Shown here: positions 3,763-63,728 of the stretch, one piece after another
Layout of the letters: every line of letters starts with the position of its first letter
How positions within the stretch are numbered: the stretch's first letter is position 1
Assembly (NCBI GenBank): GCA_902778925.1
Contig: CACYZN010000021.1
Location: 3,847-67,846, forward strand
Source: an uncultured Bacteroidota bacterium
GTDB lineage: Bacteria; Bacteroidota; Bacteroidia; Bacteroidales; P3
Direction of reading: 5' to 3'
Length of the DNA stretch: 64,000 nt
Notes under the pieces: model-generated
Databases searched by the model: none
What the model was told of the DNA's origin: nothing
Seen by the model: only the letters and a program-made list of their open reading frames with translations
Position numbers and translations under genes: made by a program

Positions 3763-3801
3763 AATCCTTGTTTCGGGCTTTCCTCTCCCCGAAAGCGAGT
3801 G

Positions 3802-3809
3802 CAAAAGTA
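3802..3809 (-). promoter_or_regulatory. Bacteroidota sigma-A -7 box (TACTTTTG) upstream of tRNA-Arg
   Basis: Plus strand CAAAAGTA is TAnnTTTG on the minus strand, about 40 nt upstream of the tRNA 5' end. Confidence 0.45.
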
Positions 3810-3914
3810 CGAACTTTTTTGATACCGACCAAATTATTTTTCAAATATTTTTCTGCACCCGTTATAGAGGTTTGATATGTAGTGCGTTGTGTGATGCCGA
3901 ATTTTTTGTCTTTC

Positions 3915-4433: not shown

Positions 4434-5320
4434 ATCTTGAAGTTGTTCATTTCTATTCTAATGCCAAGCATGTGGTGCCATCCCCAGGCGGTGTAGCCTT
4501 TGAGGACGGTTTTGGTCTGGTAGCAGGTGTAGCCCACTTTGAAGGCTCCGATGCCGTTGACGCGGTAGCCGAGCAGCAGGCTGGAGAAGACGCCGTAGCC
4601 GATGCCGCCCTGCGGCGGGTTGTTTTCGTAGGCTGCCACCCCGGCGTCGGGGGTGCGGCCGTCCCAGCGGTCGAGTATGGAGTAGGTCTGGCCGCCGATC
4701 TGCATGATGTTGTCTTGCACCTGGGTGTTGACGAGTGTGGCGCCGAGGTCGAGCTCGAGTTCGAGGGTGGGGGAGAGTGGCACGGTGCGGGTGAGTGCGA
4801 GGTCGATGTTGATGCGTTTCTCGCGGCCCATGATTTCGCAGGGTATGTACTGGTTGGTGCCGGGCAGGCTGGCGCCGTTGGCGGCGCTGAGGTTGAAGCC
4901 GCCGATGGCTTGCAGGCGTGCCAGGTCGAAGCGCAGCAGCCATCCGAAGCCCGAGGCGTAGTCGTAGCGCAGGCCGACCCCTATCTGGTACGATGTGCGG
5001 TAGTACATGCGCTGCGAGTATTCGACTACCTGCAGCTGGTTGTAGCTGCCTATGGCCGAGGGCGAGATGAGGCCTTGCCCCACCAGGTTGTTCCAGATGG
5101 CGGTGCCGTAGGTGTTGCTGTGCAGCACGCGGTTTATGGTGTTGACGTTTTCCGGGCTGCCGTTGTAGAAGTTGGCTGTGATGTTGCTGGCCCAGTAGGC
5201 GCCAGCGTTGGCAAACACCGAGAGGCCTGTGTAGTGCGTACTACTCGGAGGCTTGCCGTCGTCGGCGATGGCCGATGTGGCAAGCAGCAGTGCGGTGAGT
5301 GTGAGTACGGTGTGTTTCAA
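4430..5320 (-). CDS. Putative outer-membrane beta-barrel protein (hypothetical), TTG start
   Basis: The only start giving a signal peptide is TTG 5320-5318 (LKHTVLTLTALLLATSAIADD). It overlaps the sigma-factor stop by 2 nt. The protein is rich in alternating aromatic/Gly beta-strand-like segments. The upstream part of track ORF 4430..5686 is Arg/Pro-rich junk. Confidence 0.55.
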   Translation of the reverse strand: MKHTVLTLTALLLATSAIADDGKPPSSTHYTGLSVFANAGAYWASNITANFYNGSPENVNTINRVLHSNTYGTAIWNNLVGQGLISPSAIGSYNQLQVVEYSQRMYYRTSYQIGVGLRYDYASGFGWLLRFDLARLQAIGGFNLSAANGASLPGTNQYIPCEIMGREKRINIDLALTRTVPLSPTLELELDLGATLVNTQVQDNIMQIGGQTYSILDRWDGRTPDAGVAAYENNPPQGGIGYGVFSSLLLGYRVNGIGAFKVGYTCYQTKTVLKGYTAWGWHHMLGIRIEMNNFKI

Positions 5321-5928: not shown

Positions 5929-7110
5929 TTATTTTTTGAACTTCCTGTTGCTCTGTAACGGCAAAAGTATCAAAATAGTATTTGCCACCATAAAATAAAG
6001 TTCAAAAATGGGAGCGGCGAAGTGTATGTAGCCTCCGTCGAAGCGGTGGGTGAGGCGCGAGAAGCTCACTATCTGCCATGCCCATTTCACTATGGCACAG
6101 GTGGCTACGACTATCCATGGCAGGCTGCCCTGCACCAGCAGCAGTGCCCCGGCGCAGTAGAAGAGCAGGTTGGCCAGCGGGGTGAGCTGTTCGTTGAACC
6201 GGCTGCCCAGCGAGTGGCGGCGGCGGGTGGCTACGCGGTGCACGCGGTCTTCGTGCCACAGGGCGAAGGTCTTCTTGGCCTCGACCGAGAGGCAGGCGTC
6301 GCTGTCGATGCAGATGGTCGTGTTGTCGCGGTCGGCGTTCTGGTACACGAACAAGTCGTCCGAGCCGTCGGCCACGTCGTAGTGGCGTATGAAGGCTCCT
6401 TGTTTGAAGAAGAAGGAGCGGCGGTAGCTGAGGTTGCGGCCCGAGCCGGTGTAGGGGTGCCCCAGCAGGGCGTTGCCCAGGTACTGCGAGCCGTAGGCCA
6501 GCGCGTCGTATTGCTGCAGGGCGCCCAGGAGGGTCTTGGTACGCTTCACGCCGCAGTAGCCCAGCACTATCTGCACGGGCTTCTGTGCCTGACCTTTGTG
6601 GCTTTTGGCGTCGGCGCGGAAGTAGCCGCGCACCATGCCGCGCAGCCACATCAGGTTCTTGGGCGTGCAGTCGGGGTCGGCCAGCAGCAGCACGTCGTTC
6701 TTGGCGCTCTTGATGCCTATGGACAGCGGGTATTTCTTGCCCTGGAACAGGTTGACGTCCTCCTTGAAGGGCACCACCTTCAGGTGGGGGTAGTAGTCCC
6801 GCAGGGTCTTCAGCACGTATGGCGTGTCGTCGTGGCTCAGGTAGTCGACCACCACTACTTCGAAGTCGGGATAGTCCTGCTCGAGCAGGTATACCAGGTT
6901 CTCTTTCAGCCACTCCGAGTCGTTGTGGGCCGTCAGCACGATGCTCACCGGCGGCAGGGGGTGCTCCTCGCTCAGGTTGTGGTGCTTCCACCGCCCCACG
7001 CGGAAGTGGTACAGACCATAGTAGATGGACAAATACGCCAGCCCCGCTAGCATGGCCACGGTAAGCACAATGGCGTATGTATCAGTTACAAAGTTGCTAA
7101 AGTCGAACAT
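5929..7110 (-). CDS. Family 2 glycosyltransferase, membrane-anchored
   Basis: 393 aa. An N-terminal TM segment is followed by VSIVLTAHNDSEWLKENLVYLLEQDYPDFEVVVVDYLSHDDT and LLLADPDC (GT-A fold, DxD-like). C-terminal TM helices are present. Confidence 0.8.
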   Translation of the reverse strand: MFDFSNFVTDTYAIVLTVAMLAGLAYLSIYYGLYHFRVGRWKHHNLSEEHPLPPVSIVLTAHNDSEWLKENLVYLLEQDYPDFEVVVVDYLSHDDTPYVLKTLRDYYPHLKVVPFKEDVNLFQGKKYPLSIGIKSAKNDVLLLADPDCTPKNLMWLRGMVRGYFRADAKSHKGQAQKPVQIVLGYCGVKRTKTLLGALQQYDALAYGSQYLGNALLGHPYTGSGRNLSYRRSFFFKQGAFIRHYDVADGSDDLFVYQNADRDNTTICIDSDACLSVEAKKTFALWHEDRVHRVATRRRHSLGSRFNEQLTPLANLLFYCAGALLLVQGSLPWIVVATCAIVKWAWQIVSFSRLTHRFDGGYIHFAAPIFELYFMVANTILILLPLQSNRKFKK

Positions 7111-7133
7111 TGTTGCACATCAGTTTCAGCGTA

Positions 7134-7141
7134 CAAAAATA
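7134..7141 (-). promoter_or_regulatory. -7 box TATTTTTG for the GT2-sigma-OMP-GNAT operon
   Basis: Plus strand CAAAAATA lies 24 nt upstream of ATG 7110. Confidence 0.45.
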
Positions 7142-7382
7142 CACATTATTCCGCATCCCCGCCGGCCGCCGATGTTTAAAATATCAACATTTATTCAACA
7201 CCTCCGCACTCCGCTGCCCCCGCCGCCCCCCGTCGCCGTCGGCCCGGCACCCCCTGCGGTGCCAGAAATGTGCCTTTCTTAATACTATTTAACTTAAACC
7301 TTAAAGGATTTAGGATTTCGGTCGGATTTTGACCCCTTCGTAACCGGTTGATACCCAGCTCTGCCAGCCTTCTTCTCCGGAT

Positions 7383-7483
7383 CCCCTCCGGTATTTCTTA
7401 TGTACTTCTTATGTATTTCTTATGTATTTCTTATGTTTTAAACATAAATACAACATAAGATATACATAAGAACGACATAAGAG
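7383..7483. repeat. AT-rich palindromic element built from 11-bp units, copy A (TTCTTATGTA family)
   Basis: CCCCTCCGG then TATTTCTTATGTACTTCTTATGTATTTCTTATGTATTTCTTATGTTTTAAACATAAATACAACATAAGATATACATAAGAACGACATAAGAGA. It is near-identical to the copies at 39291-39383, 63583-63680 and (inverted) 50175-50278. Confidence 0.9.
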
Positions 7484-7514
7484 AAGTTTTTTTTGCCGTG
7501 TCGGCGAAAAGGTG

Positions 7515-7522
7515 TATCTTTG
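7515..7522 (+). promoter_or_regulatory. -7 box TATCTTTG for nfo
   Basis: TAnnTTTG match 46 nt upstream of ATG 7568. Confidence 0.45.
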
Positions 7523-7567
7523 CACACGAAAACGATACCGTATTACGAACATATCAACACCAGAATC

Positions 7568-8407
7568 ATGACGAAATACATCGGCGCCCATGTGAGCGCA
7601 TCGGGGGGCGTGGGCAACGCCATACTGAACGCCGAGGCCATCGGGGCCAACGCCTTTGCCTTGTTTACCAGAAACCAGCGTTCGTGGGTGAGCAAACCGC
7701 TGCCGCAGCTGGAGATCGACGGCTTCCGGGCCCTGCTCGTCGACCGCGGCTTCAGTCCCAAATACGTGCTGCCGCACGACAGCTACCTCATCAACCTCGG
7801 CTCGCCCGACGAGGAGACGCTGCAAAAGAGCCGCGCCGCCTTCCTCGACGAGATGACGCGCGCCCAGCAGCTGGGCCTCACCATGCTCAACTTCCACCCA
7901 GGCAGCCACCTCAACAAGATAAGCGAGGAGGAATGCCTCGACCAGATAGCCCGCGAGGTGAACCTGGCCCTCAGCAAGACCGAGGGAGTGACGGCGGTCA
8001 TCGAGAACACTGCCGGACAAGGCACCAACCTCGGCTGGAAGTTCGAGCACATCGCCCGCATCATAGCCGGCATAGACGACAAAGCCAGGGTGGGCGTCTG
8101 CATCGACACCTGCCACACCCTCGCTGCCGGCTACGACCTGAGCACCGAGATGGGCTACATGTTCTGCTTCGAGGAGTTCGACCGCCTGATAGGGCAGCAG
8201 TACCTCCGCGCCATCCACCTCAACGACAGCAAGAAAAACGCCGGCAGCCATGTGGACCGTCACGAGGTGCTGGGCGAGGGCTTCCTCGGCAAAGCCTTCT
8301 TCAGCCGTTTCATGCACGACCCCCGCTTCGACGACATGCCCATCATCCTCGAGACCCCCGACCCCATGCGCTGGGCCGAGGAAATCAAATGGCTGCGTTC
8401 ACTATGA
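7568..8407 (+). CDS. nfo: Endonuclease IV (AP endonuclease)
   Basis: [14 protein letters not shown]...NFHPGSH...VIENTAGQG...[13 protein letters not shown]...IHLNDSK...[11 protein letters not shown] are canonical Nfo metal-binding motifs. The upstream part of the track ORF is not coding. Confidence 0.9.
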
Positions 8408-10282: not shown

Positions 10283-12067
10283 ATGCAAGAGCCAACCCGA
10301 TTGTTCGACTTGCTCGAGTGGAGAAAACAGTTACATCCCGAGCGTCCCGTCTTCAAGTACAAGGAAAACGGCGAATGGAAAGAACATTATATCGACGAAT
10401 ATATCGAGAAGTGCAACCTCATAAGCTACGCTTTGATGCATCTCGGTGTGAAGAAGGGCGAAAACATCGGCCTCATCTCTGCCGGACGTCCCGAGTGGAA
10501 CTATGTGGACTTCGGTGTGCAGCAAACGGGTGCCGTACTTTTGCCCATCTACCCAACCATCAGCGAGGAGGATTACGAGTTTATACTGAACGACGCGCAG
10601 GTGCGCCTGCTTGTCGTCGAGACACCGGCGTTGTATAAGAAGATTTGCAGCATCCGCGAGCGCTTGCCGCATTTGGAGAACCTATGCACCATTGTGCCCA
10701 TGGAGGGTGTGAAGTCGTTGGACGATATTTATGAGCTGGGCCGTCGCTATGTGGCAGAGCACCCCGACGCCCCACAGCAGCTACAGGCCACCAAGGACTC
10801 GCTGACTACCGACGACGTGTGCACCATGATCTACACCAGCGGTACCACAGGCACCCCAAAGGGTGTGATGCTGGCCCATCGCGGTTTGATTATGAATGTG
10901 CAGGAGATCAAGGAGAGTCCGGGAAAGACTTGGACCAAGGCCCTCAGCTGGCTGCCCATGTGCCATATCTACGAACGTATGATGGGCTACCTCTATCAGT
11001 GGCTCTGCTTCACCGTAGCCTATGCCGAAAGCATTGCCAAGGTGGCCGACAACTGCAAGGAGATTAGTCCCAACATGATGGCCTGTGTGCCGAGATTTAT
11101 CGAGAAGGTCTACGACAAGATATTCCGCAAGGGTGAGAAGATGACCGGCATAAGCAAGAAGATTTTCGACTGGGCCATCGACTTGGCTTTCAAGTACGAC
11201 CTTGATGAGTCGAAACTCTCGTGCTGGTACAAGATGCAGAAGAAGATGGCCGATAGGTTGGTCTATAAGTCGATTCGCGAGAGCATGGGCGGCGAGCTGT
11301 ACATGCTCGTCAGCGGCGGCGCCACCATCCAGCCGCGTCTGACGCGCTTCTTCTCGTGCGTTGGTCTCGACCTCTACGAGGGCTATGGCCTCACCGAGAC
11401 GTCGCCACTGATTGCTGTTACCAACAGCAACAAGAAAGGCCGCAAGATTGGTTCGGTGGGCTTCGCCATGCGTGCGATAGAAGTGCGTATCGACAACGAG
11501 ACGGGTGAGATACAGTGTCGTGGCGGCAATGTGATGAAGGGCTACTACAACGCACCCGAGCTCACTGCCCAGGCCATAGACCCCGACGGCTGGTTCCACA
11601 CCGGCGACACGGGCTACTTCGATCCCGACGGATACCTCTTCATCACCGGTCGAACCAAGAGTATGTTCAAGACATCAATGGGTAAGTATATCAACCCAGA
11701 GGTGATTGAAGAGAAGATGAAGCAGTCGCCATTCATCATGGATATGATGGTGGTGGGTGCCGAGCAGAAGTTTGCCGCAGCCTTGATAGCACCCGACTTC
11801 GACATGCTGAAGGACTGGTGTGGGCGTCATGGCGTTGCTGCCCAGACCAAGGAAGAAATGATAGCCGACCGTACTGTCATAGCCCGTTACCAAAAGGTGG
11901 TAGACAAGTATAATGCCGAACTGGGTGTTACCGAACAAGTGAAACGCTTCGCATTGGTGGCCGAGGCCTGGACCGAGGCTAACAAGATGCTCACTCCAAC
12001 CCAGAAACTCATCCGCCGCAACGTCGAAGCCGCCTACAGGCAGCAGATAGATGCACTCTTTGTGTGA
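10283..12067 (+). CDS. Long-chain fatty acid--CoA ligase (AMP-forming, FadD-like)
   Basis: 594 aa. The AMP-binding signature is MIYTSGTTGTPKGVML, followed by YGLTETS and WFHTGDTGYFDPDGYLFITGRTK. Confidence 0.85.
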   Translation: MQEPTRLFDLLEWRKQLHPERPVFKYKENGEWKEHYIDEYIEKCNLISYALMHLGVKKGENIGLISAGRPEWNYVDFGVQQTGAVLLPIYPTISEEDYEFILNDAQVRLLVVETPALYKKICSIRERLPHLENLCTIVPMEGVKSLDDIYELGRRYVAEHPDAPQQLQATKDSLTTDDVCTMIYTSGTTGTPKGVMLAHRGLIMNVQEIKESPGKTWTKALSWLPMCHIYERMMGYLYQWLCFTVAYAESIAKVADNCKEISPNMMACVPRFIEKVYDKIFRKGEKMTGISKKIFDWAIDLAFKYDLDESKLSCWYKMQKKMADRLVYKSIRESMGGELYMLVSGGATIQPRLTRFFSCVGLDLYEGYGLTETSPLIAVTNSNKKGRKIGSVGFAMRAIEVRIDNETGEIQCRGGNVMKGYYNAPELTAQAIDPDGWFHTGDTGYFDPDGYLFITGRTKSMFKTSMGKYINPEVIEEKMKQSPFIMDMMVVGAEQKFAAALIAPDFDMLKDWCGRHGVAAQTKEEMIADRTVIARYQKVVDKYNAELGVTEQVKRFALVAEAWTEANKMLTPTQKLIRRNVEAAYRQQIDALFV

Positions 12068-12090
12068 TTTGACGAAAAAGTCTTAAATGA

Positions 12091-12130
12091 AGAATGCAGC
12101 TGGTTCATCGAACCAGCTGCATTCTTTTAT
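12091..12130 (+). terminator. Rho-independent terminator after the ligase gene
   Basis: Perfect hairpin AGAATGCAGCTGGTTC-ATCG-AACCAGCTGCATTCT followed by TTTTAT. A-rich sequence upstream could allow bidirectional use. Confidence 0.8.
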
Positions 12131-12142
12131 ATGGCCCCTGTC

Positions 12143-12610
12143 TTATTCGGACAACTTGAACCGCATGCGCCAAACATGTCTGTCGGAGTCGTAATCATGG
12201 GAAATGATTTGGAAGCGGCCAATTTCCGACGTGTTTGCTACATGTGTGCCCACACATGCACACAGGTCATAGTCGCCGATGCGCACCAGCCGTAGTGTCT
12301 CGCTGGCATCGTCGGGGAGCTTCCATAGGTCTACCTCGGGCGGCACCTCTCCTCTCTTCACAAACTCATACGTCACAGGCAGGTGCTGTGCAATTACTTC
12401 GTTCACGCGGTGCTCTATTTCCAGCACCTGGGCCTCGGTGGGGCAAGCATCGAGCAGGTAGTCGCACTTGCTCTTCTTACGCTCGATGTGTGCATTGCGC
12501 GACCGAGGGCAGCCGAACATCCGCACCATCGTCTGATTCAGTATATGCTCCGCCGTATGCATCGGCGGATATTCCTCTTTGTTGTGGGCATTTAGAATGG
12601 GTTGTTCCAT
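12143..12610 (-). CDS. Alanyl-tRNA editing protein (AlaX-type, tRNA_SAD domain)
   Basis: 155 aa from ATG 12610. The Zn/editing motifs are HTAEH and CACVGTH. The upstream part of the track ORF is Arg-rich non-coding sequence. Confidence 0.7.
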   Translation of the reverse strand: MEQPILNAHNKEEYPPMHTAEHILNQTMVRMFGCPRSRNAHIERKKSKCDYLLDACPTEAQVLEIEHRVNEVIAQHLPVTYEFVKRGEVPPEVDLWKLPDDASETLRLVRIGDYDLCACVGTHVANTSEIGRFQIISHDYDSDRHVWRMRFKLSE

Positions 12611-24422: not shown

Positions 24423-25295
24423 TTAGCGTTTCTTGAGGCTCAGTATCTCGCGGGCTTCGTCGCTGGTGGCGATGGGGCGGCCGAGGAGTTTGGCCATGCG
24501 CACCACCTTGTCGACCAGCTCGCCGTTGCTCTTGGCCAGCACGCCGCGTTCGAGGTAGAGGTTGTCTTCGAAGCCCACGCGCACGTTGCCGCCCATGACG
24601 ATGGCGGGAGCGGCCAGTGTGAAGGCGTTGCGGCCGATGCCGGTGGCGGTCCAGGTGCTGCCGGCGGGTATGTTCTTCACCATCCACACCAGATTGTCGA
24701 CCGAGGCCGAGGCGCAGCCGAGCACGCCGAGCACGAAGTTGAACTGCATGGGCACCAGGGGCAGGGGCTGGCCGTCGGGGCCGGCTACGCCGAAGGCGCT
24801 GGGCACCTGGCCTTTGCGGGCCATGTGGACTATGGTCTCAAGGTGTCCCATCTCGAAGCACTCGTACTCGGGCTTGATGCCTTTCTCGATCATACGCTTG
24901 CCGAAGGCGCGCATGGTGGGCATGGTGTTGTCGAAGATGTCGTCGCCAAAGTTGCAGGTGCCGCAGTCGAGGGTGGCCATCTCGGGCACGGGGGTGGTGT
25001 TGGTCGAGTCCAGTCGCTCGTCGGGCGTCATGCCCACGGCACCGCCGGTCGAGGGGATAAGTATCACGTTGGGGCACTCTTTCAGTATGGCCTCGGTGCA
25101 CTCCTGGAAGCGCACGTGGCTCTGGGTGGGCGTGCCGTCGTCTTCGCGCACGTGCAGGTGCACGATGGCGGCGCCGGCGTCGACGGCGCTCTTGGCTTCG
25201 CGCACTATCTCTTCCACGGTGTAGGGCACGTTGGGGTTCTGCTCTTTGGTTACTTCGGCGCCGCAGATGGCGGCGGTGATTATCAGTTTCTCCAT
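24423..25295 (-). CDS. Beta-keto acid cleavage enzyme (BKACE/DUF849; 3-keto-5-aminohexanoate cleavage enzyme-like)
   Basis: ATG 25295 gives MEKLIITAAICGAEVTKEQNPNVPYTVEEIVREAKSAVDAGAAIVHLHVREDDGTPT, a typical BKACE N-terminus. Confidence 0.8.
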   Translation of the reverse strand: MEKLIITAAICGAEVTKEQNPNVPYTVEEIVREAKSAVDAGAAIVHLHVREDDGTPTQSHVRFQECTEAILKECPNVILIPSTGGAVGMTPDERLDSTNTTPVPEMATLDCGTCNFGDDIFDNTMPTMRAFGKRMIEKGIKPEYECFEMGHLETIVHMARKGQVPSAFGVAGPDGQPLPLVPMQFNFVLGVLGCASASVDNLVWMVKNIPAGSTWTATGIGRNAFTLAAPAIVMGGNVRVGFEDNLYLERGVLAKSNGELVDKVVRMAKLLGRPIATSDEAREILSLKKR

Positions 25296-25345
25296 GTTGT
25301 TGTATGTTTTATTATTACTAATCCGAACAATTTTCAATCAAGCGG

Positions 25346-25353
25346 CAAAAATA
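25346..25353 (-). promoter_or_regulatory. -7 box TATTTTTG for the BKACE operon
   Basis: Plus strand CAAAAATA lies about 50 nt upstream of ATG 25295. Confidence 0.45.
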
Positions 25354-25430
25354 CAAAAAAAAATACAATCGCAATAAAAAAAGTACTCCCCGGCCATCAA
25401 AAAGCCCTCGCGCCCCCCTCGGCACCCCGT

Positions 25431-25575
25431 CCCCTCCGCTTCCGGTGGCCTCGTTGTACTATTGTTGTACTATTGTTGTACTATCGTTGTACTATTGAAA
25501 ACATAAGAACGATAGTACAACGATAGTACAACAATAGTACAACGATAGTACAACGACCGGAGGAGGGGAAGGGGC
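25431..25575. repeat. AT-rich palindromic element built from 11-bp units, variant copy B (TYGTTGTACTA family)
   Basis: Left arm 25451-25495 is (T[C/T]GTTGTACTA)x4. Right arm 25512-25556 is its reverse complement with 44 of 45 positions matching. The 16-nt loop is TGAAAACATAAGAACG. CCGG and CCCCTCC/GGAGGGG brackets flank the arms. Confidence 0.9.
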
Positions 25576-25605
25576 TTTTTTTCTTACCGGATTAAGAATA
25601 ATTTG

Positions 25606-25613
25606 TATTTTTG
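25606..25613 (+). promoter_or_regulatory. -7 box TATTTTTG for the OmpA/caspase-like gene
   Basis: TAnnTTTG match 30 nt upstream of ATG 25643. Confidence 0.45.
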
Positions 25614-25642
25614 CACTTCGGATTTTGAACAACAACGACAGT

Positions 25643-27385
25643 ATGAAGAAGGTAGTAATTACAGTGTTAGCCCTTGTGGCGGCGGTGGCGGCATGGTGCC
25701 AGAACGGCGAAGTGCAGCTCAACCGCGAGTATCAGGCCGCTATACGCGAGTGGTTGGAACAGGATGTGGCCGGTCGCGGCCGTGCCATGCAGGAACGTGC
25801 CGAGCGCATGCTGCTGGCGCTGCCCAACGACGAGAAGCTCTACGACGAGGGGCTGGTGGCCATAGGCTCGCGCATCGAGGAGGGCGTCGGCGCCGACGGG
25901 CAGCCGGTGCTCAACTTTGTGTACGACATATCCTACAACTGCCGACACATGGAGGGCTACACCGACGACTACCCGCTGGGCCAATACCGCTGGGACGTGT
26001 CGAACTCGGCACGCGCCATGTGCCAGCTGACCAAGCAGTTTGTCGAGGGAGTGCTCGACGACCTGTTCCGCGCTGGCAAGGATGTCACCATCCGCATCAC
26101 CAGCTCGGCCGACGGCACCGACATCAGCGCCCCGATAGCCTACGGCGGCGAGTACGGCGACTTCCGCTACATGCCCACCGTCTTCAACGGCGAGCCCCTG
26201 CGCCTCTCGGTGAGCCGCCAGAGCGGCATAGCCAACAACGCCCAGCTGGCCTACGTGCGCGCCCAGTCGGTGCGCCACTACCTGGAGACCGAGGTGCGCA
26301 ACCTGGCGCAGACGCGCAACCGCTACGAGTACATCACCCGGTCGTACATAGATACCGGCGCACAGTACCGCCGCTCGAGCATCGAGCTGGTGGTGCACGA
26401 CGCCTTCCGCGAGACCATCGACCTGATGACGGCCGACAAGATACAGGACGACTATGTCGACTTCAACGTGCCGCAGGCCGCGGGCAGCTACGAGGAGGCC
26501 TATGTGCTGATACTCTGCAACGACGAGTACCGCCTGCCCTTCCTGCCCTCGGTGCCCTTCGCCATGAACGACGCCAACATGGTGCGCCGCTACTTCACCC
26601 GCGCCCTCGGCGTGCCCGAACGGCATGTGAAGATGCTGCATGGCGCCACCAAGCAGGCCGTGCTCGACGAGGGTGTGCACTGGCTCACCGACCTCTCGCA
26701 GGCCGTGGCAGGCCACAAGGGCGACGCCCTCGACCCCCAGATGGATGTCTACATTTACTACGTGGGCTTGGGCTACACCGACTACGACGGCAAGGGCTAC
26801 CTGGTGCCCGACGGCTTCGAGGTGAGCAATATCAAGTCGCTGGCTGTGAACAAGAAAGGCAAGGCCCCCTACATGGGCGCCGACGGCCGGGTGAACTACG
26901 ACATACCCCTCTCGGGCAAGGAGAGCGGCCGCCTGACCAAGGGACTGCTGGGCATCGACGAGCTGCTCGGCAAGTTCAAGGGCTTCCCCATACGCCGACT
27001 GACCATGGTGATAGACGCCAGCTTCGACGGCAACCAGCGCAACGGCCAGCCCATGCTACGCGCCGACCGCAAGATAGACACCAAGAAGAAGAAACGCCGC
27101 CGTATGAACCTGCGCAGCGACGCCGTGGTGCTCATGGCCGCCGACCTGGACCGCACGGCCTACGCCTTCGACGCCCAGCACCACGGTTTCCTCACCTACT
27201 TCCTGCTGAAGGAGGTGAAGGGCGCTGCCGGCCGCATGGACGAGTGCACCTATGGCGACCTGTACGACGCCATAGAGCGCAAGGTGAACAAGGAATCGGC
27301 CCTGCAGGGCCGCTGGCAGGAAGTGGGCGGCGCCGCCGGTGGCCGCTACAAGGATAGCTGGCGCGGGTTGAAGATAGAAAAGTAA
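25643..27385 (+). CDS. Secreted OmpA-like domain / caspase-like (peptidase C14 fold) fusion protein, predicted catalytically inactive
   Basis: ATG 25643 gives MKKVVITVLALVAAVAAWCQ. The OmpA-like block is VTIRITSSADGTD...NNAQLAYVRAQSVRHYL. The C14-like block is YVLILCNDEY...MNDANMVRRYF...VYIYYVGLGYTDYDGKGYLVPDG...MVIDASFDG...HHGFLTYFLLKEV. Confidence 0.6.
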   Translation: MKKVVITVLALVAAVAAWCQNGEVQLNREYQAAIREWLEQDVAGRGRAMQERAERMLLALPNDEKLYDEGLVAIGSRIEEGVGADGQPVLNFVYDISYNCRHMEGYTDDYPLGQYRWDVSNSARAMCQLTKQFVEGVLDDLFRAGKDVTIRITSSADGTDISAPIAYGGEYGDFRYMPTVFNGEPLRLSVSRQSGIANNAQLAYVRAQSVRHYLETEVRNLAQTRNRYEYITRSYIDTGAQYRRSSIELVVHDAFRETIDLMTADKIQDDYVDFNVPQAAGSYEEAYVLILCNDEYRLPFLPSVPFAMNDANMVRRYFTRALGVPERHVKMLHGATKQAVLDEGVHWLTDLSQAVAGHKGDALDPQMDVYIYYVGLGYTDYDGKGYLVPDGFEVSNIKSLAVNKKGKAPYMGADGRVNYDIPLSGKESGRLTKGLLGIDELLGKFKGFPIRRLTMVIDASFDGNQRNGQPMLRADRKIDTKKKKRRRMNLRSDAVVLMAADLDRTAYAFDAQHHGFLTYFLLKEVKGAAGRMDECTYGDLYDAIERKVNKESALQGRWQEVGGAAGGRYKDSWRGLKIEK

Positions 27386-33509: not shown

Positions 33510-34283
33510 CTACCAGTCTTTGTCCGAGCGGTTCCTGCTGCCTATTTGTTCTTTCTTGACTTGCTCTTTTAGGGTCTGGCGCTCGTTGTTTTTCACAGCT
33601 TCGAGCATACGTTCGGCGTCTTGGCGGCGCTGGTTCTCAGCTTTGCTCGGTTGTTGCTGTTTTTGGTCTTGTTTTTGCTGTTGTTGCTGCTGGTTCTGTT
33701 GTTGCTGACCTTGTTGCTGCTGGTCTTGCTGTTGGTTCTGCTGCTGTTGCTGGTTTTGTTGCTTGTCTTGACCGCCACCGCCCCCTTGTTGCTGTTGCTG
33801 CTGTTGTTGCTGGGCTTGCTGCAGTAGTTTTTTGGCATAGGCCAGGTTGTAGCGGGTGTCGTTGTCTTTGGGTTCCAGTTTTAGCGACTCTTGGTAGGCT
33901 TCCACGGCTTGCTGGAACATCTGCATGCCTTGGCCACCTTCGTTGTTGGCTAGCCCGTTTTCCACAAGGCTGTTACCCTTATTGTGCAGTGTTCTGGCAC
34001 GTTGATGCTTGTCAAGCTTTGGGTTGGCAAGGCTTTGGTCGAAATGGCGCACCGCCTCGTCGTATTTCTTCTGGCGATACAATGCGTTGCCAAGGTTGTA
34101 CTGTCCGCGGTAGTCGGTACTGTCGCTCTCCAGCGCCTGTCGGTAGTTTGTCTCGGCCTGGTCGAAGTGCTCTTTGTTGTAGTTTCTGTTGCCCTCGCGT
34201 ATCAAGTGTCGGTTGGCTTGGCCATGGGCGATGCCCACGGCGGCCATAGCGAGCATGAGTATAAGTGTTCTCTTGATGTTCAT
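33510..34283 (-). CDS. batC: BatC (TPR protein with long Gln-rich tail)
   Basis: ATG 34283 overlaps the batB stop (ATGA) and gives MNIKRTLILMLAMAAVGIAHGQ. TPR repeats are followed by a roughly 60-residue Q-rich tract. The upstream part of the track ORF is non-coding. Confidence 0.75.
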   Translation of the reverse strand: MNIKRTLILMLAMAAVGIAHGQANRHLIREGNRNYNKEHFDQAETNYRQALESDSTDYRGQYNLGNALYRQKKYDEAVRHFDQSLANPKLDKHQRARTLHNKGNSLVENGLANNEGGQGMQMFQQAVEAYQESLKLEPKDNDTRYNLAYAKKLLQQAQQQQQQQQQGGGGGQDKQQNQQQQQNQQQDQQQQGQQQQNQQQQQQKQDQKQQQPSKAENQRRQDAERMLEAVKNNERQTLKEQVKKEQIGSRNRSDKDW

Positions 34284-38127: not shown

Positions 38128-39135
<1,008 letters not shown>

Positions 39136-39272
39136 ATCTGTTTTTGCTTTTTTTTTATTTTGAATTTTCCAATAAACTTAAAAAGCCCCCCTTTATTGCC
39201 TTTTTAACAATCTTTTTGATTTCGCCGAAAACCACTGCCCCTGCAAGCGCCTCACTATCAGTCCCGCCACTG

Positions 39273-39423
39273 CTCCCCTCCGCTTCCCCTCCGGTAGTTC
39301 TTATGTACTTCTTATGTATTTCTTATGTATTTCTTATGTTTTAAACATAAATACAACATAAGAAATACATAAGAACGACATAGGGCGGGGAAGGGGTGGA
39401 AAACGGGGGCGTGGAGAGTGGGT
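39273..39423. repeat. AT-rich palindromic element built from 11-bp units, copy C, with C-rich left and G-rich right flanks
   Basis: CTCCCCTCCGCTTCCCCTCCGG, then a TTCTTATGTA-unit palindrome, then GGGCGGGGAAGGGGTGGAAAACGGGGGCGTGGAGAGTGGG. Confidence 0.9.
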
Positions 39424-39492
39424 AACAGGGTGGCTGTTGAAAAAAGTTGTGAAAAAAATACGAGAAAAATCATATATATAAAGAAAAAGTTG

Positions 39493-39500
39493 TATCTTTG
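39493..39500 (+). promoter_or_regulatory. -7 box TATCTTTG for the T9SS propeller protein gene
   Basis: TAnnTTTG match 54 nt upstream of ATG 39554. Confidence 0.45.
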
Positions 39501-39553
39501 TGCGATAAAAGTTTAGTGTGAATTTGAAAGAACTAACTAATTAATAATATCTT

Positions 39554-42500
39554 ATGAAAAGAAGCAAAGTACTTTTCGGCCTATTTGCGGGCGTTTTGGC
39601 TTTGGTAGGGAGCACGGCGAGTGCCCAGAACAAGTTTTGTGAGCTTGGTCCGGCCAACCTCGGCGGTCAGGTTTCGTGCCTGGCGTTGGACCAGCAAGAC
39701 ACTATCCACACCACCGTTTTTGCCGGTGCCACCTCGGGCGGTTTGTTCGTGAAGTCGAACAATCGCGAGTATTTGCGTGGGTTGTACACTGCACGTCAGA
39801 TGGATACCACGCTGTCGGCCGGTACCGACATGTGGCATTTCATCCCCAATCCCATCTCGGGTAGGGAGGATGTGCTTCCGGTGAGCGCCATCAAGCAGCT
39901 GCCCAACGGCTCGCTGCTGATCGGTACGGGCGACGATTTGTACCCCATGGGTACCAATGTGACCCGGATGTCGAACCTGGGCAAGGGTTTGTACGTCATG
40001 GACAAGAATACTTTCGCATGCGATATGGTGGCCGGCACACGTCCGTCGATGCCCGGCGACAAGTTTGCCGCCATCCACGCCATCGACTACGTCTATCGTA
40101 ACGGCGTGCTGAACGTGTTCGTGGCTTCGAACACCGGCCTCTACCGTTGGCAGATACGCGACGGCCATGAGACCGACTGGAACCGCAGCCCCGAGACCGT
40201 CATCAGCGGTTCGGTCGACCAGTTGGTGGCTGCCGCACAGCTGAAGATGGTCTACTTCAGCATTGGTGGCAACCTCTATGCCATCGCCGACGCCACGGCC
40301 CAGACGCTGCAGTACATCGACCTCACGTCGACCAACAGCGCTTTCGGCCAGAGCAACAGCGTGCTGAAACTGGCTGTCTCCCCCTCGAATCCCTCGTATC
40401 TGTATGCGATGGTGATCCATGGAGGCATGATGCAGAACATCTACCTGACCCGCAACCTGCAGACCTGGTCCGAGCTGGCCACCGGCACGGTGATGCCGTT
40501 CAGCTACACCAGCGGCCAGACTTGCGGCAGCGTGGCTGTGGACCCCGCCCAGCCCGAACATATCCTGATTGGCGGCACCACGCTGTACAGCGGTACCGGC
40601 TATGTGGAAGGCAGCCACTATCAGTGGATGAAGATCTCCTCGTCGGAGTTCGAGACCAACTATGGCAACTATATGGCTATGGTGTTCAACAACTCCTCGT
40701 TCGTGCACTCGGGCATTCAGCAGATACTGCCTGTGTACCGCCGTGTCAACCCCGCTTCGGACGAGAAGGTGCTGACCTACTACTTCGCCACCAACGGCGG
40801 TGTCTACACCACCACCAATATGTATGTGTACGAGAATGTGAACCGCGGTCTGAACAATATGCAGATGAACAGCATCGCCGTTTCGCCCGACGCTTCGGTC
40901 ATCAGCGGTTCGAACGACAATGCCTGCCCCTTCATCGAGAGTCGCGCTGCCCACAACGAGGCTGAGACCGAGGTGGCTTGGTACGACAATGGCCTTGTCG
41001 AGGGTCTGAACCACTCGGGTGTGATACTGTGGAACGGTTCGGGCGGACAAGTTGGAGCTTCGCGCTTCCAGCAGGTCAAACCCGAGCAGCGCCGCAACAT
41101 CTATGTGTCGTCGAACCAGAGCCCCGACCGTGGCCGCGCCTACAGAAATTACTTCGACTATACCGACAACCAGGTGTGGACATACAACCAGGCCTTCACC
41201 ACCAGCGAGCTGCGTGGCGGTAGCACCGACATCGGAAATATCTACACTTGGGAGACCGACCACAACACGATCTTCAACGACAGTATCAAGGTTACCTTCG
41301 ACACACTGGGCTACTATATGCGTCTCAAAGCCGACGGCACCTACGACAGTGCCCGTATCTCGGGTGCCAACTTCAGCTTCAAGGCTGGCGACAAGTTGAC
41401 CGTGCTGAGCCGTGCCAACTCGGACTATCCCTTCGAGTACACCTTCACCAAGACCCACCCGCTGAACAAGACCCTGAAGGTGCAGAACCCGCTGCAGGCC
41501 CGCGCAGTCATCATCGCCGTCGACTCGCAGACTCCCACCATCTGGGGTGTCTACATGTCGTGGCGTGCTTCCGACTTCACCAAGGTCTACGACGCCACCA
41601 TGGCCAACGCAGGCTTGAGAGAAGGTCTCAACTATTGGCCGCGCGTGTTCTATTGCAACACCAACCTTGCAAGCGAGCGCTACTATCGTCCGTCGAAGGT
41701 GACGATGAGCGAGGATGGCCGCTTCCTGTATGTTGCCGTTCGCGACATCTCGACCGGCAAGACCATGGTGGTACGTTGCAAGGGTATGGAGACTGTAGAC
41801 TTCTCCAACCCCGACCCCAGTAAGATAAGCGGTATGCTTCAGGACAGCCGAAACAACGATGAATCGCACATCAGCTACGATACCTTGAAGCTCACGAACG
41901 GCGATATATGGCTGCCGCGCAACATCAGCTCGATGACGACAGACGGCAACCGCATTATCCTCACCTTCGACGGCTACAACAACGATCCCGCCTGCCTCTC
42001 GAACATCGGCTGCATTAGCAACATAGACGACACCATGGCTTTCGCCGAGATTGCCAGCCCGAACAAGGGTATCCCAGCCTTCTGCTCGATGGTGGCTCAC
42101 AATGGCAATATCTACATGGGTACCACCGATGGCGTGAGCATTTACAACGGCACCACCTGGAGCGACTATGCAAACCTTTCTGGCATACCTGTGATGCAGA
42201 TTGTCCAACAGAAGGACACCCTGCCTGTGCGCCATCACTTCGGCCACAATGGTATCGAGGAGCTCAACTATGTGTTTGCAAAGACCAAATGGCCGTATGC
42301 CATGTACTTCGCCACCTACGGTCGCGGTATCTTCATGGATATGCAGTTCGTTACCGACACAGTGAACGAGATTTGCGACTCGGCCGACTACACCGAGGTC
42401 GGTATCCCCACCGTGCGTGGTACCGAGACCAATAGCGTCAGCATCTATCCCAACCCCGTGTCGGGTCGCGCCAACCTCCACATCGAGGCTGCCGAAGCCG

Positions 42501-42682
42501 GCAATGCACAGCTGCGCATCTACGACCTCAACGGCCGTTGCGTGGTCGACCGCCGACTGGGCTACGTGGCCGAGGGCGAGCAGACCTTCAGCGTGACTAC
42601 CGAGGGTATGAATCGCGGCATGTATTTGGTGAATGTCATCATTGGCGGCCATACTGCGGCCACGAAGATGATGGTTCGCTAA
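39554..42682 (+). CDS. Large secreted beta-propeller-type protein with T9SS type-A C-terminal sorting domain
   Basis: 1042 aa with signal peptide MKRSKVLFGLFAGVLALVGSTASAQ. Propeller-like repeats include TVFAGATSGGLFVKS and GTTDGVSIYNGTTWSDY. The C-terminus is VSIYPNPVSGRANLHI...GMYLVNVIIGGHTAATKMMVR. Confidence 0.7.
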   Translation: MKRSKVLFGLFAGVLALVGSTASAQNKFCELGPANLGGQVSCLALDQQDTIHTTVFAGATSGGLFVKSNNREYLRGLYTARQMDTTLSAGTDMWHFIPNPISGREDVLPVSAIKQLPNGSLLIGTGDDLYPMGTNVTRMSNLGKGLYVMDKNTFACDMVAGTRPSMPGDKFAAIHAIDYVYRNGVLNVFVASNTGLYRWQIRDGHETDWNRSPETVISGSVDQLVAAAQLKMVYFSIGGNLYAIADATAQTLQYIDLTSTNSAFGQSNSVLKLAVSPSNPSYLYAMVIHGGMMQNIYLTRNLQTWSELATGTVMPFSYTSGQTCGSVAVDPAQPEHILIGGTTLYSGTGYVEGSHYQWMKISSSEFETNYGNYMAMVFNNSSFVHSGIQQILPVYRRVNPASDEKVLTYYFATNGGVYTTTNMYVYENVNRGLNNMQMNSIAVSPDASVISGSNDNACPFIESRAAHNEAETEVAWYDNGLVEGLNHSGVILWNGSGGQVGASRFQQVKPEQRRNIYVSSNQSPDRGRAYRNYFDYTDNQVWTYNQAFTTSELRGGSTDIGNIYTWETDHNTIFNDSIKVTFDTLGYYMRLKADGTYDSARISGANFSFKAGDKLTVLSRANSDYPFEYTFTKTHPLNKTLKVQNPLQARAVIIAVDSQTPTIWGVYMSWRASDFTKVYDATMANAGLREGLNYWPRVFYCNTNLASERYYRPSKVTMSEDGRFLYVAVRDISTGKTMVVRCKGMETVDFSNPDPSKISGMLQDSRNNDESHISYDTLKLTNGDIWLPRNISSMTTDGNRIILTFDGYNNDPACLSNIGCISNIDDTMAFAEIASPNKGIPAFCSMVAHNGNIYMGTTDGVSIYNGTTWSDYANLSGIPVMQIVQQKDTLPVRHHFGHNGIEELNYVFAKTKWPYAMYFATYGRGIFMDMQFVTDTVNEICDSADYTEVGIPTVRGTETNSVSIYPNPVSGRANLHIEAAEAGNAQLRIYDLNGRCVVDRRLGYVAEGEQTFSVTTEGMNRGMYLVNVIIGGHTAATKMMVR

Positions 42683-42702: not shown

Positions 42703-42740
42703 AAAGGAGGTGCCGCCCGTGGGCAGTGCCTCCTTTTCTT
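42703..42740 (+). terminator. Rho-independent terminator
   Basis: AAAGGAGG...GCCCGTGGGC...CCTCCTTT stem-loop followed by TCTTG / T-rich sequence. Confidence 0.65.
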
Positions 42741-42769
42741 GTAAAATAAAAGAATACATAAATATATTA

Positions 42770-42800
42770 CTATAGTACCTATTGCTCCTATAGTACCTAT
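42770..42800. repeat. 13-bp direct repeat CTATAGTACCTAT x2 upstream of tyrS
   Basis: Copies lie at 42770-42782 and 42788-42800. Each contains the 10-bp palindrome TACTATAGTA or most of it. Confidence 0.7.
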
Positions 42801-42812
42801 AATACACCTTAA

Positions 42813-44090
42813 ATGAAACAAAACCTTGTAGAGGAACTGAAATGGCGCGGTATGATACACGACATCATGCCTGGCACCGAAGAACAACTCAATAAAGAAA
42901 TGACTACGGCTTATGTGGGTATAGATCCCACGGCCGACTCGCTGCATATAGGCCATCTGGTAAGCATCATGCTCTTGAAACACCTGCAGATGGCAGGCCA
43001 CAAGCCCCTCGCGGTGGTGGGTGGCGCCACGGGTATGATAGGCGACCCGAGTTTCAAGGCTCAGGAGCGCAAACTGCTTACCGTGGATGAGATCCAGCAC
43101 AATGTGCAGTGCATCCGCAAGCAGTTGGAACGCTTCCTCGACTTCGACAATCCCGTCAATGGAGCCGAGATATGCAACAACTACGACTGGATGAAGGACT
43201 ACCTTTTCCTCGACTTCATACGCGACGTGGGCAAGCATATCACCGTAAACTACATGATGACTAAGGACAGCGTGAAGAAGCGCATGGAGACCGGCATCTC
43301 GTTCACCGAGTTCAGCTACCAGTTGCTGCAGGGCTACGACTTCCTGACTCTCTACCGCACCAAGGGCTGCAAACTGCAGATGGGCGGTAGCGACCAGTGG
43401 GGCAACATCACCACTGGCACCGAGCTCATACGTCGCATGGAAGGCGGCGAGGCTTTCGCACTCACCTGTCCGCTCATCACCAAGGCCGACGGCACCAAGT
43501 TCGGCAAGACCGAGGGCGGCAACGTGTGGCTCGACCCCGAGAAGACAAGTCCGTACAAGTTCTACCAGTTCTGGCTCAACTGCTCGGATGTCGATACGGC
43601 GCGCTACATCCGTATTTTCACCCTCTTTGGCCGCGAGGAGATTGAAGCACTCGAGAAACAGCATGCCGAGGCTCCCGAACAGCGCATACTGCAGAAGGCC
43701 TTGGCCAAAGACATTACAATCCGTGTGCACGGCGAGGAGGCCTACAATACCGCCATCGCCGCCAGCGAGCTCCTTTTCGGTAAAGCCACTACCGAGCAGC
43801 TGAACAGCCTGGACCGTGCAACCCTGCTTTCCGTCTTCGACGGAGTGCCACAGTACAATGTGGCTCGTGCCTCCATCGAGGCTGGTGCTTCGCTGGTCGA
43901 CCTCGCTGCAGAAGTGGGTATGTTCGCCTCGAAAGGCGAGATACGCCGCGAGCTGAAGCAGAATAGCATCAGCGTCAACAAGCAGAAGGTAGGCGAAGGC
44001 GCCACCCTCTCGGCGGCAGACATACTTGCCTCGGGCTGTATTCTTGTCCAGAAGGGAAAGAAAAACTACTATATACTTAACGTCGAGTAA
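42813..44090 (+). CDS. tyrS: Tyrosine--tRNA ligase
   Basis: HIGH motif (SLHIGHL), KFGKT (KMSKS equivalent), and a C-terminal S4-like domain. Confidence 0.9.
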
Positions 44091-49979: not shown

Positions 49980-50006
49980 CGTTGTAACGTTTGGTCTATT
50001 CCACTG

Positions 50007-50174: not shown

Positions 50175-50278
50175 CCGGCCGTTCTTATGTCGTTCTTATG
50201 TATATCTTATGTCGTATTTATGTTTAAAACATAAGAAATACATAAGAAATACATAAGAAGTACATAAGAACTACCGGG
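50175..50278. repeat. AT-rich palindromic element built from 11-bp units, copy D (inverted relative to copies A, C and E)
   Basis: The reverse complement reads CCGGTAGTTCTTATGTACTTCTTATGTATTTCTTATGTATTTCTTATGTTTTAAACATAAATACGACATAAGATATACATAAGAACGACATAAGAACGGCCGG. Confidence 0.9.
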
Positions 50279-50505
50279 ATAGAAAGTGGTGAAAAACCGG
50301 GGTTTTTGGGTGGAATGTTAAAATAGTGTTAAAAAAAGGTGGCTTTTAGTTAAAATTATGTTATGCTGGCCAGCTTGGCGCCCTTCAATCTTTTTACTTT
50401 TAACTTCCATTTTTTAACTTTCCCGCCCTCTTGGTGCGCAATAATTGCGGGGATGTGTCGTTACTAAAAAGTCAAAAAACAGAACGAGGAAATTATAGTT
50501 TAGCG

Positions 50506-63482: not shown

Positions 63483-63577
63483 CAACCTTTTTTTCAATTG
63501 GCAGTGCTTTTTTTTGAGCCATGTTTCAACATTTTTTCAACCACCTTCACCCCGTCCTCACCTCTATCGCTCCCCAT

Positions 63578-63728
63578 CCCCTCCGGTAGTTCTTATGTAC
63601 TTCTTATGTATTTCTTATGTATTTCTTATGTTTTAAACATAAATACAACATAAGAAATACATAAGAAATACATAAGAACGGCAGGACCGGAACCGGTGGG
63701 GAACGGTAGGGGTGGCAGGGTGGCGGGC
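63578..63728. repeat. AT-rich palindromic element built from 11-bp units, copy E, with a G-quadruplex-type right flank
   Basis: CCCCTCCGG, then the TTCTTATGTA-unit palindrome (the right arm has one extra ATACATAAGAA unit), then GGCAGGACCGGAACCGGTGGGGAACGGTAGGGGTGGCAGGGTGGCGGGC. Confidence 0.9.

Follow-up and report, generated by a model that had tools for sequence, protein, structure and literature searches.

The Correia/NEMIS miniature inverted-repeat transposable elements (MITEs) of Neisseria are 100-250 bp long, carry terminal inverted motifs, occur as near-identical subfamily copies and often lie near promoters. The unit of the repetitive extragenic palindromes (REPs) is a 20-40-nt imperfect palindrome with a GTAG or CGTC head; classical REPs lie mostly between convergent and co-directional open reading frames (ORFs), and are thought to be transcribed and to act largely as RNA (PMC3733652). 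REP doublets forming hairpins (REPINs) are described as lineage-specific and as persisting for long at orthologous positions (PMC3116915, PMC3337134, bioRxiv 10.1101/2021.07.10.451892). Here we describe a long palindrome of a different make in a 64,000-nt stretch of DNA, referred to as the window (GenBank assembly GCA_902778925.1, contig CACYZN010000021.1, positions 3,847 to 67,846; GC content 57%), which comes from an uncultured Bacteroidales lineage of chicken-caecum and other gut metagenomes. The palindrome, at about 25.4 kb of the window, has arms built of tandem 11-bp units and belongs to one (F2) of two subfamilies, F1 and F2. We lean, by a modest degree, towards the view that it is an F2 copy of a lineage-specific, non-coding, dispersed hairpin repeat of about 180-250 bp that resembles MITEs and REPINs and is selfish or neutral, and that it is neither a gene nor an RNA.

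An inverted-repeat search resolves the 25.4-kb element into two 45-nt arms, complementary at 44 of 45 positions (98%) and separated by 16 nt, in which Tandem Repeats Finder detects a period of 11 with 4.1 and 4.5 copies (coordinates are collected in Table 1). The units of the left arm follow the order TCGTTGTACTA, TTGTTGTACTA, TTGTTGTACTA, TCGTTGTACTA and a final T, and the sole mismatch between the arms, T25463 opposite G25544, is a C-to-T change relative to the consensus of the other F2 copies. Around the arms stands a frame that includes the motifs CCCCTCC (25431-25437) and GGAGGGG (25562-25568); the 80 nt on the left contain 35 C and 11 G, and an A-run lies upstream of the C-tract. At the right bracket (25561-25575 in the window), three further assemblies of this strain have CCGGAGGGGAACAGGAGGGGAAGGGGAGGGGAAGGGGC, with 19 more bases of G-tract after CCGGA. 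The stretch 25395-25585 is predicted to fold as one hairpin, spanning 25399-25580, with a DNA energy of -68 kcal/mol against -19.6 +/- 3.1 for shuffled sequences (z = -15.8, 0/200 as good); the RNA energy of the same stretch is -113 kcal/mol (z = -16.2). The element has no coding capacity.

The loop combines the family centre, which is TTGAAAA in F2 and TTTAAAA in F1, with a single unit of the F1 type, CATAAGAACGA at 25502-25512, the reverse complement of TCGTTCTTATG. The first-pass annotation of the window had given the positions of arms, brackets and loop and the complementarity of the arms, all of which are correct in the sequence, and had observed that the loop carries a unit of the TTCTTATGTA family, here named F1; the 10-mer ACATAAGAAC at 25501-25510 is indeed identical to 39367-39376. 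By simulation, any 10-mer of an F1 copy is expected in a 16-mer of the loop's composition with a probability of 0.006-0.008. The match is also positional, as the F1 allele that occupies the 25.4-kb locus in other strains aligns TTTAAAACATAAGAA with TTGAAAACATAAGAA of the window.

Comparison of the F1 and F2 frames confirms that the two share architecture, 11-bp period and brackets, as had been proposed. Both start with a C-rich tract and CCCCTCCGG; a set of four 11-bp units rich in A and T comes next, then the short centre and an equal number of inverted units, and CCGG(AACCGG)AGGGG leads into a tract rich in G. With all copies oriented alike, the left half of F1 consists of the C-rich tract, CCCCTCCGG, the triplets TAG, TAC, TAT and TAT each followed by TTCTTATG, and TTTTAAA, and its right half of CATAAATACAA CATAAGAAATA CATAAGAACGA CATAAGAACGG, CAGGA-CCGG-AACCGG and the G-rich tract. 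The left half of F2 has the C-rich tract, CCCCTCCGG, four copies of TCGTTGTACTA, one of TCGTTCTTATG and TTTTCAA, and the right half four copies of TAGTACAACGA and GGCCA-CCGG-AACCGG-AGGGG. The frame, the centre and one innermost unit are therefore what F1 and F2 have in common, all eight paired units being different, and it is this F1-type unit, left without a partner, that forms the F2 loop.

Four F1 copies accompany the F2 copy in the window, one of them (E4) in the opposite orientation, and a second F2 copy of the same strain lies just upstream of groES about 10 kb past the window's right end (L093:1-75; L numbers denote the loci used for comparison). The contig that begins inside this second copy, k141_520420, shows 0 differences from the window over 12.5 kb (51500-64000) and, over a further 6.8 kb, one G-tract indel in otherwise identical sequence. 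About 74 kb of one strain thus contain four F1 and two F2 copies. Full-length F2 palindromes were found at six more loci, all in the metagenome Ga0326511 (L038, L051, L058, L078, L079 and L085), with different flanks and in both orientations. Every F2 copy that reaches the centre has the identical centre with the F1-type unit, so the loop alignment across copies suggested by the first-pass annotation reproduces the loop wherever it can be read. We conclude from these alignments that F2 is a multi-copy subfamily of this genome and that the loop is a family character. As expected for a multi-copy repeat, many metagenome contigs end inside the elements, and another groES contig also begins within the repeat.

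The metagenome scan returned 78 matches, only the six Ga0326511 contigs being true F2; most of the others were set aside as unrelated direct arrays or 11-bp satellites (L020, L037, L060, L063, L084, L092). The contigs just named are made up for the most part of 11-bp satellites whose units are similar (TATGGTTGCAC, TATTGTTGTAC/TGC, TATGGGTGTAC), in up to about 30 copies and all direct. When one genome per species was scanned (596 Gb) with two tandem variant units as query, F2 was not found in any species-representative genome; 10 matches were rejected as relatives, being direct repeats of two to three units in unrelated phyla that have neither palindrome nor frame, and about 10 such tandem duplications are estimated to arise by chance in 596 Gb. 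The F1 unit pair had no match in viral contigs, nor whole elements in plasmids and phages.

Copies of F2 are near-identical across loci, including their asymmetries, and the same holds for F1 between the CCGG sites: most differences between F1 copies fall in the frames, and the four F1 copies of the window have the same pattern of imperfections. This near-identity indicates that the subfamilies spread by copying of whole elements. The first-pass annotation had argued for a common generating mechanism rather than simple copying of one sequence, and this part fails for the 25.4-kb copy, which was copied from an F2 master rather than built up in situ around a core.

The two subfamilies also exchange places at a fixed position. 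At the 25.4-kb locus F2 is present in the window and in L004, L129, L130 and L131, and F1, in the same orientation, in L001, L002 and L003, which come from different samples and encode a BKACE protein identical to that of the window. The flanks of the two alleles differ by about 1 single-nucleotide polymorphism (SNP) per 100 bp (the strains being about 1% diverged), whereas a block of dense differences extends from 25435 to about 25561 and includes bases of the frame: TCCGC versus AAGCC, and TGGCC versus TCCTG, the F1 allele having CCGG followed by TCCTG where the window has TGGCC. The window's TCCGC and TGGCC agree with the frame of other F1 and F2 copies. The alignment of these alleles indicates that one subfamily has replaced the other at this locus.

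Single units turn over as well. Among strains with identical MoxR, the 39.3-kb locus (E3) varies by +11 bp, a gain of one unit (L097), +17 bp, likewise with unit gain (L105), -19 bp (window) and -61 bp (L100, which has lost the left frame and one unit). At the gyrB locus, L095 has ACG in a right-arm unit where the window shows AAT; at several loci the first unit begins with TAG or TAT, and GAAATAC and GATATAC recur over loci and strains, a recurrence of variant states that fits conversion or overwriting of units. The related species L122 has one arm in which TTGGTACGGTG is expanded to three copies, the other arm being unchanged. These comparisons indicate that 11-bp units are gained, lost and overwritten between strains; the idea that the two arms expand symmetrically and independently appears unlikely. 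In the F2 consensus the TCG and TTG variants stand at mirror positions of the two arms (C,C,T,C in both), a pattern that points either to an origin of one arm as the inverted duplicate of its partner or to correction of the one against the other within a hairpin. Such hairpin-templated correction is an established process for quasi-palindromes.

The G-tract to the right of four of the five palindromes of the window is missing relative to other assemblies of the same strain, by 64, 19, 19 and 43 bp, and the arms, loop and left frame of the F2 copy are untouched by these losses. They represent either very recent deletions at G-rich, G-quadruplex-like DNA or errors of the source assembly. Over the stretches compared, an SNP cluster in L098 is all that otherwise sets the same-strain assemblies apart from the window. 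This cluster, 13 SNPs within 150 bp (43323-43469), lies inside the gene 42813-44090 and looks like a short recombination tract; no other base-level difference separates L098 from the window over 21 kb.

The elements occupy a distinct class of spacer. Whole loci from five genomes, about 150 kb in total, were scanned for palindromes (the window, L119, L120, L122 and L123), and all 12 of the periodic palindromes lie in spacers between divergent genes, with none in about 100 tandem or convergent gaps. Each of the five divergent spacers of the window holds one element (7110-7568, 25295-25643, 39135-39554, 49979-50506 and 63443-63752). The five genomes together have about 17 divergent spacers, and 12 of these hold an element, 7 of the elements belonging to the four related species. 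By a rough count, divergent spacers make up about a third of the intergenic DNA when the elements are left out, and the probability of 5/5 is about 0.005 and that of 12/12 about 2e-6, shared ancestry being ignored. Non-periodic hairpins elsewhere lie, where checked, at or between gene ends (for example 12086-12130 in the convergent gap 12067-12143). In every case looked at, the elements are upstream of both -7 boxes. G-runs stand on the non-template strand of each diverging gene, E3 having C 37/G 12 in the 80 nt on its left and G 37/C 6 in the 80 nt on its right, and autocorrelation of the outer tracts gives a weak peak at lag 11 (0.465 versus 0.31-0.42 at other lags).

Contigs whose GyrB is 96-98% identical to that of the window have palindromes of the same design made of other 11-bp units, and thereby supply further unit variants, for which the first-pass annotation had advised a search. 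L119 has two copies of an element with CTGTTCTACCA / TTGTTTAACGG, a unit close to that of F2; L120 and L121 have GTTCTTCAGTA three times per arm, in 61-nt arms, the unit being close to that of F1; and L122, L123 and L124 have CCTACCAACTC / GGTAGGAGTTG. All of these palindromes have C-rich left and G-rich right tracts, some with CCTCCG / CGGAGG boundaries (the L119 type).

Several observations were made beside these elements in the wider set of relatives. Two more distant Bacteroidales with an 88% identical BKACE protein have long divergent spacers (L113 1560-2110 and L118 1750-1850) with direct 11-bp arrays (GACTATACTAC five times; GAATTACCCTA-like) and strand-asymmetric tandem repeats of short units, CATTAACA to the left and GGTTAAGG to the right, which resemble the elements in style and contain no palindrome. 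The BKACE homologues at 88-89% identity lie in non-syntenic contexts and offered no empty site for the 25.4-kb locus. L123 contains, at 3680-4620, a gene for a 178-aa Y1_Tnp protein (3996-4532), similar to REP-associated tyrosine transposases (RAYTs), flanked by inverted GC-rich REPs GGGCGTACACGGGGGTACGCCCCTAC and preceded by about seven tandem units of about 37 bp that contain half of that REP; the sequence of this REP is unrelated to F1 and F2.

How a dispersed repeat would come to show these features can be outlined as follows. The F2 master may have arisen from an F1-like element as a new unit spread through it by replication slippage, with the arms then symmetrised by hairpin-templated repair; the F1-type unit of the loop would have survived because, unpartnered, it escaped homogenisation. 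Unit turnover around a retained centre would be a reasonable account of how the F2 master originated from an F1-like ancestor. Replacement of F1 by F2 or the reverse probably came about as dispersed copies recombined, or underwent gene conversion, through the C/G-rich frame that they have in common; excision and re-insertion at the same site, by an enzyme that recognises the conserved CCTCCG...CGGAGG ends, would be the alternative. Restriction to divergent spacers would follow mainly if so strong a hairpin is tolerated only in untranscribed DNA, and negative supercoiling in the wake of two diverging polymerases may in addition favour insertion there.

Several points weigh against a mobile and selfish repeat. 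No transposase, RAYT or related autonomous element was found in the Pfam lists for about 74 kb of this strain, and neither an empty site nor a target-site duplication could be defined, so that mobility is inferred from dispersal only: each of the five loci is occupied in every conspecific assembly, and the only pair of presence and absence that was found, the gyrB spacer of L122 and L123, is too diverged to place boundaries. Gene conversion would have only a short, low-complexity stretch of frame homology to act on, and the three lineages do not polarise the direction of the F1/F2 replacement. The F2 copies of Ga0326511 are not confined to divergent spacers, L051 lying between tandem genes and L058, L078 and L085 being faced by the 3' end of a gene. 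Elements are kept at orthologous spacers across species (the MFS/4HBT spacer in L122 and L123, and the region upstream of gyrB in three species), and the 11-bp architecture is retained while its sequence changes. Orthologous persistence and kept architecture suit a structural role under selection no less well than selfishness.

We consider such a role somewhat improbable: the element would be a functional structural DNA module of divergent promoter pairs that buffers, insulates or couples the two promoters. Under the supercoiling generated by diverging polymerases, the AT-rich palindrome would extrude as a cruciform and the homopurine G-runs would adopt G-quadruplex or triplex form, or else the 11-bp-phased units would wrap or recruit a nucleoid protein; the sequence would be free to vary provided that symmetry and 11-bp phasing are kept, and copies would be alike through concerted evolution. 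The occupancy of divergent spacers, complete in the window and frequent over the five genomes with none elsewhere in them, is in keeping with this proposal, as are the position upstream of both -7 boxes, the conservation of architecture and period over differing unit sequences, the presence at orthologous spacers of diverged relatives, the strand-asymmetric G-runs and the weak lag-11 signal. There is precedent in a cruciform reported from an intergenic regulatory region of Vibrio parahaemolyticus (PMC10325908), and transcription-driven cruciform extrusion has been demonstrated on E. coli plasmids (PMC3834812, citing Dayn et al. 1992). Against it, strains tolerate loss of G-tracts, loss of frame and unit in L100, changes of unit number and a subfamily swap, all without visible compensation; 5 of about 17 divergent spacers are empty, all in relatives; the F2 copies of Ga0326511 adjoin gene 3' ends; and a selfish hairpin tolerated only in untranscribed DNA predicts the same distribution. 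The most far-reaching form of the idea, which we regard as unlikely, holds that nearly every back-to-back promoter pair of the lineage is separated by a non-B-DNA module, an 11-bp-phased AT-rich cruciform former with non-template G-runs on each side that responds to the negative supercoiling caused by transcription or wraps nucleoid protein, and thereby insulates or couples the promoters. Selection would then act on the architecture, and slippage, symmetrisation templated by the hairpin and interlocus conversion would keep the unit sequence changing, which would explain the species- and strain-specific unit types at a single locus.

The remaining alternatives carry far less weight. Formation of the palindrome in place, by symmetric expansion of a new 11-bp unit around a leftover shared core, would account for the F1-type unit and family centre in the loop and for the F1 allele at the same locus in other strains, and gain, loss and overwriting of units do occur; yet at least 7 other loci have the same F2 sequence, centre, TCG/TTG order and frame, so that an identical outcome would be needed repeatedly, the differing block takes in frame bases outside the units that match other F1 and F2 frames, and no intermediate alleles were seen. 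We hold this origin to be highly improbable, and for the 25.4-kb copy itself it is close to refuted. Action as RNA, whether as an intrinsic terminator working in both directions, as a target of RNase III or as the hairpin of a small or antisense RNA, is equally remote from what we would expect, despite the very stable predicted RNA hairpin, the T-run after the G-tract with an A-run before the C-tract, and the analogy with classical REPs (PMC3733652). The element lies upstream of both promoters and the genes are transcribed away from it, leaving nothing to terminate, and the T-run is absent from the four F1 copies of the window. Within 25300-25650, Rfam 15 at gathering and E-value thresholds matched only generic microRNA-precursor hairpin models, far below gathering scores (the only Rfam match at threshold in the window being a tRNA-Arg), and a simple scan found no terminator-like or sigma-70 promoter-like site. 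That the palindrome is an artefact of assembly or sequencing, such as a chimeric fold-back, might be suspected from the frequent breaking of contigs inside the repeats and from the shortened G-tracts of the window. This is scarcely credible, however, as four assemblies obtained independently, from different samples and pipelines (the window, L129, L130 with L004, and L131), agree in every base of the arms, the loop and the left frame.

Other identities were considered and rejected. The 25.4-kb copy has the stem and T-run of an intrinsic terminator, but its position is between the 5' ends of two genes. An internal promoter for the flanking genes was sought and rejected: the F2 unit, read as TACTATTG, agrees with TAnnTTTG at 7/8 positions but points towards the centre and not outwards. 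Retron, CRISPR and integron attC identities were dismissed in view of the lack of a reverse transcriptase, cas or integrase gene nearby (none appears in the Pfam lists for the same 74 kb or so) and of a cassette array, and a replication origin in view of too many copies per 64 kb. Invertible promoters of Bacteroidales consist of inverted repeats that flank a promoter-bearing segment of about 150-300 bp; the arms here are only 1-16 nt apart and leave nothing to invert.

If the 25.4-kb element is a copy of a dispersed hairpin repeat, as we are inclined to think, it would represent an undescribed superfamily of bacterial hairpin repeats; no description of the family was found in literature searches with the unit strings, for palindromic repeats of Alistipes and Bacteroidetes, or on REPs and REPINs. 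Such a superfamily would be unusual in having arms of 11-bp units whose sequence varies by subfamily and species, in a near-exclusive placement at divergent promoters that is the reverse of that of classical REPs, and in the swapping of entire subfamilies at a fixed locus between strains. It would offer a natural system for the upkeep of palindrome symmetry by slippage and hairpin-templated repair and for the survival of long hairpins in a chromosome. In this gut lineage, metagenome assembly breaks down on the repeats at almost every divergent promoter, and unit number and subfamily are usable as strain markers. If the structural role were instead correct, the elements would be a rare genome-wide, sequence-independent element of DNA topology at bacterial promoters.

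The element sits between a BKACE-family gene and a gene for a Peptidase_C14-like lipoprotein, both transcribed away from it. The -7 boxes listed in Table 1 are matches to TAnnTTTG, the Bacteroidetes-type -7 box consensus of Bacteroides promoters.

Table 1. Features of the 25.4-kb palindrome, its neighbours and the other palindromes of the window (positions are those of the window).
Feature	Position	Strand	Description
Left outer bracket	25399..25441	.	C-rich, G-poor tract AAAAAGCCCTCGCGCCCCCCTCGGCACCCCGTCCCCTCCGCTT; pairs imperfectly with the right G-rich bracket
Inner frame end A	25442..25450	.	CCGG (25442-25445), then spacer TGGCC
Left arm	25451..25495	+	Four 11-bp units T[C/T]GTTGTACTA and a final T
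Unpaired centre (loop)	25496..25511	.	TGAAAACATAAGAACG: family centre and one retained F1-type unit
Right arm	25512..25556	-	Inverted copy of the left arm; four units ATAGTACAAC[G/A]
Inner frame end B and bracket	25557..25582	.	CCGG (25557-25560), G-rich GGAGGGGAAGGGG, T-run 25576-25582
BKACE-family gene	24423-25295	-	Gene calls of related contigs and analysis of GC at third codon positions (GC3)
Peptidase_C14-like lipoprotein gene	25643-27385	+	Gene calls of related contigs and GC3 analysis
-7 box match for BKACE gene	25346..25353	-	TAnnTTTG; outside the element
-7 box for Peptidase_C14-like gene	25606..25613	+	TATTTTTG, a TAnnTTTG match; outside the element
F1 copy E1 (TTCTTATGTA family)	7383..7490	+	Between divergent genes 5929-7110 (-) and 7568-8407 (+)
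F1 copy E3	39275..39400	+	Between MoxR 38128-39135 (-) and Por_Secre_tail protein gene 39554-42682 (+)
F1 copy E4	50175..50285	-	Opposite orientation; between DUF6029 48315-49979 (-) and NAD synthase 50506-52062 (+)
F1 copy E5	63577..63700	+	Between gyrB 61500-63443 (-) and anmK from 63752 (+)
Missing G-tract sites	7480 (64 bp), 25561 (19), 39382 (19), 50276 (43)		Relative to L125, L129/L130/L131, L098 and L126

Other repeats and insertions were seen in and around the window. Arrays of 7-bp tandem repeats at 50041-50161 (TTCTAAG x4, TCACCTT x5, CTCTCCA x6) lead into the left side of E4; they are C/T-rich on the plus strand, and their copy numbers are different in L127. A terminator-like hairpin (about 42708-42735) is followed by four 9-bp repeats, CTATAGTAC / CTATTGCTC / CTATAGTAC / CTATAATAC, which stand at 42763-42805 just upstream of the gene that starts at 42813. 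Degenerate tandem repeats rich in TGTTGC/TGCTGC on the plus strand (33650-33812; periods 6-30) fall inside a minus-strand coding region that belongs, by its position in L001, to a BatD-family gene, implying a low-complexity protein segment. Between gyrB and Peptidase_S51, L096 (2945-4676; GCA_024712465.1) has an insertion of genes for an EcoRV-like endonuclease and a D12-class methyltransferase that is absent from the window and from L093.

Set beside known systems, the elements are like those of the REP/REPIN-RAYT system in being short, non-coding, multi-copy and extragenic and in having two inverted halves that make one long hairpin. They depart from a REP in that 11-bp units, four in tandem, make up each arm, in that the ends, CCCCTCCGG / CCGGAGGGG, are free of a GTAG or CGTC tag, and in their placement between divergent ORFs; no RAYT flanked by F1 or F2 was found in the roughly 74 kb of this strain, the RAYT-like gene of L123 being flanked by an unrelated GC-rich REP. 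Small size, lack of coding capacity, dispersed near-identical copies and the terminal inverted motifs CCCCTCCGG and CCGG(AACCGG)AGGGG, present in both F1 and F2, recall MITEs. No pair of these termini at gene-sized spacing, as a parent insertion sequence would have, occurs in 1.08 Mb of loci. Correia/NEMIS elements are of similar size, with comparable terminal inverted motifs (here CCCCTCCGG / CCGGAGGGG) and subfamilies of near-identical copies, whereas the interior here is a near-perfect palindrome of tandem units in place of unique sequence and the location is the divergent spacer.

With regard to their internal structure, the elements are comparable to arrays in which units are phased to the helix. 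OmpR/PhoB-type sites and plasmid iterons are direct repeats phased at about one helical turn, and 11-bp phasing would likewise put all units on one face of the helix; the elements differ from such arrays in having eight mirror-arranged units, in their multiplicity within a genome and in that a single genome has two unit sequences unrelated to each other. In Drosophila and other eukaryotes, foldback (FB) transposons have long inverted repeats composed of short tandem subrepeats in variable copy number, but they are eukaryotic, of kilobase scale and have a transposase-bearing partner, and no homology to them is to be expected or was seen. The palindromes of the Lobosphaera incisa mitochondrial genome (LIMPs) have arms made of runs of a tandem unit and its complement, with variable unit number, often asymmetric arms and an invariant loop; they are dispersed and intergenic, lie inside long polycistronic transcription units, and have been proposed to act as cruciforms or RNA hairpins (PMC4524435). 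The likeness lies in palindrome arms of tandem units in variable number; the LIMPs differ in belonging to the organelle of a green alga, in their unrelated sequence and units, and in that no C-rich/G-rich brackets are described for them. REPINs and MITEs are the closest bacterial kinds, and the LIMPs and the eukaryotic foldback elements the closest structural analogues.

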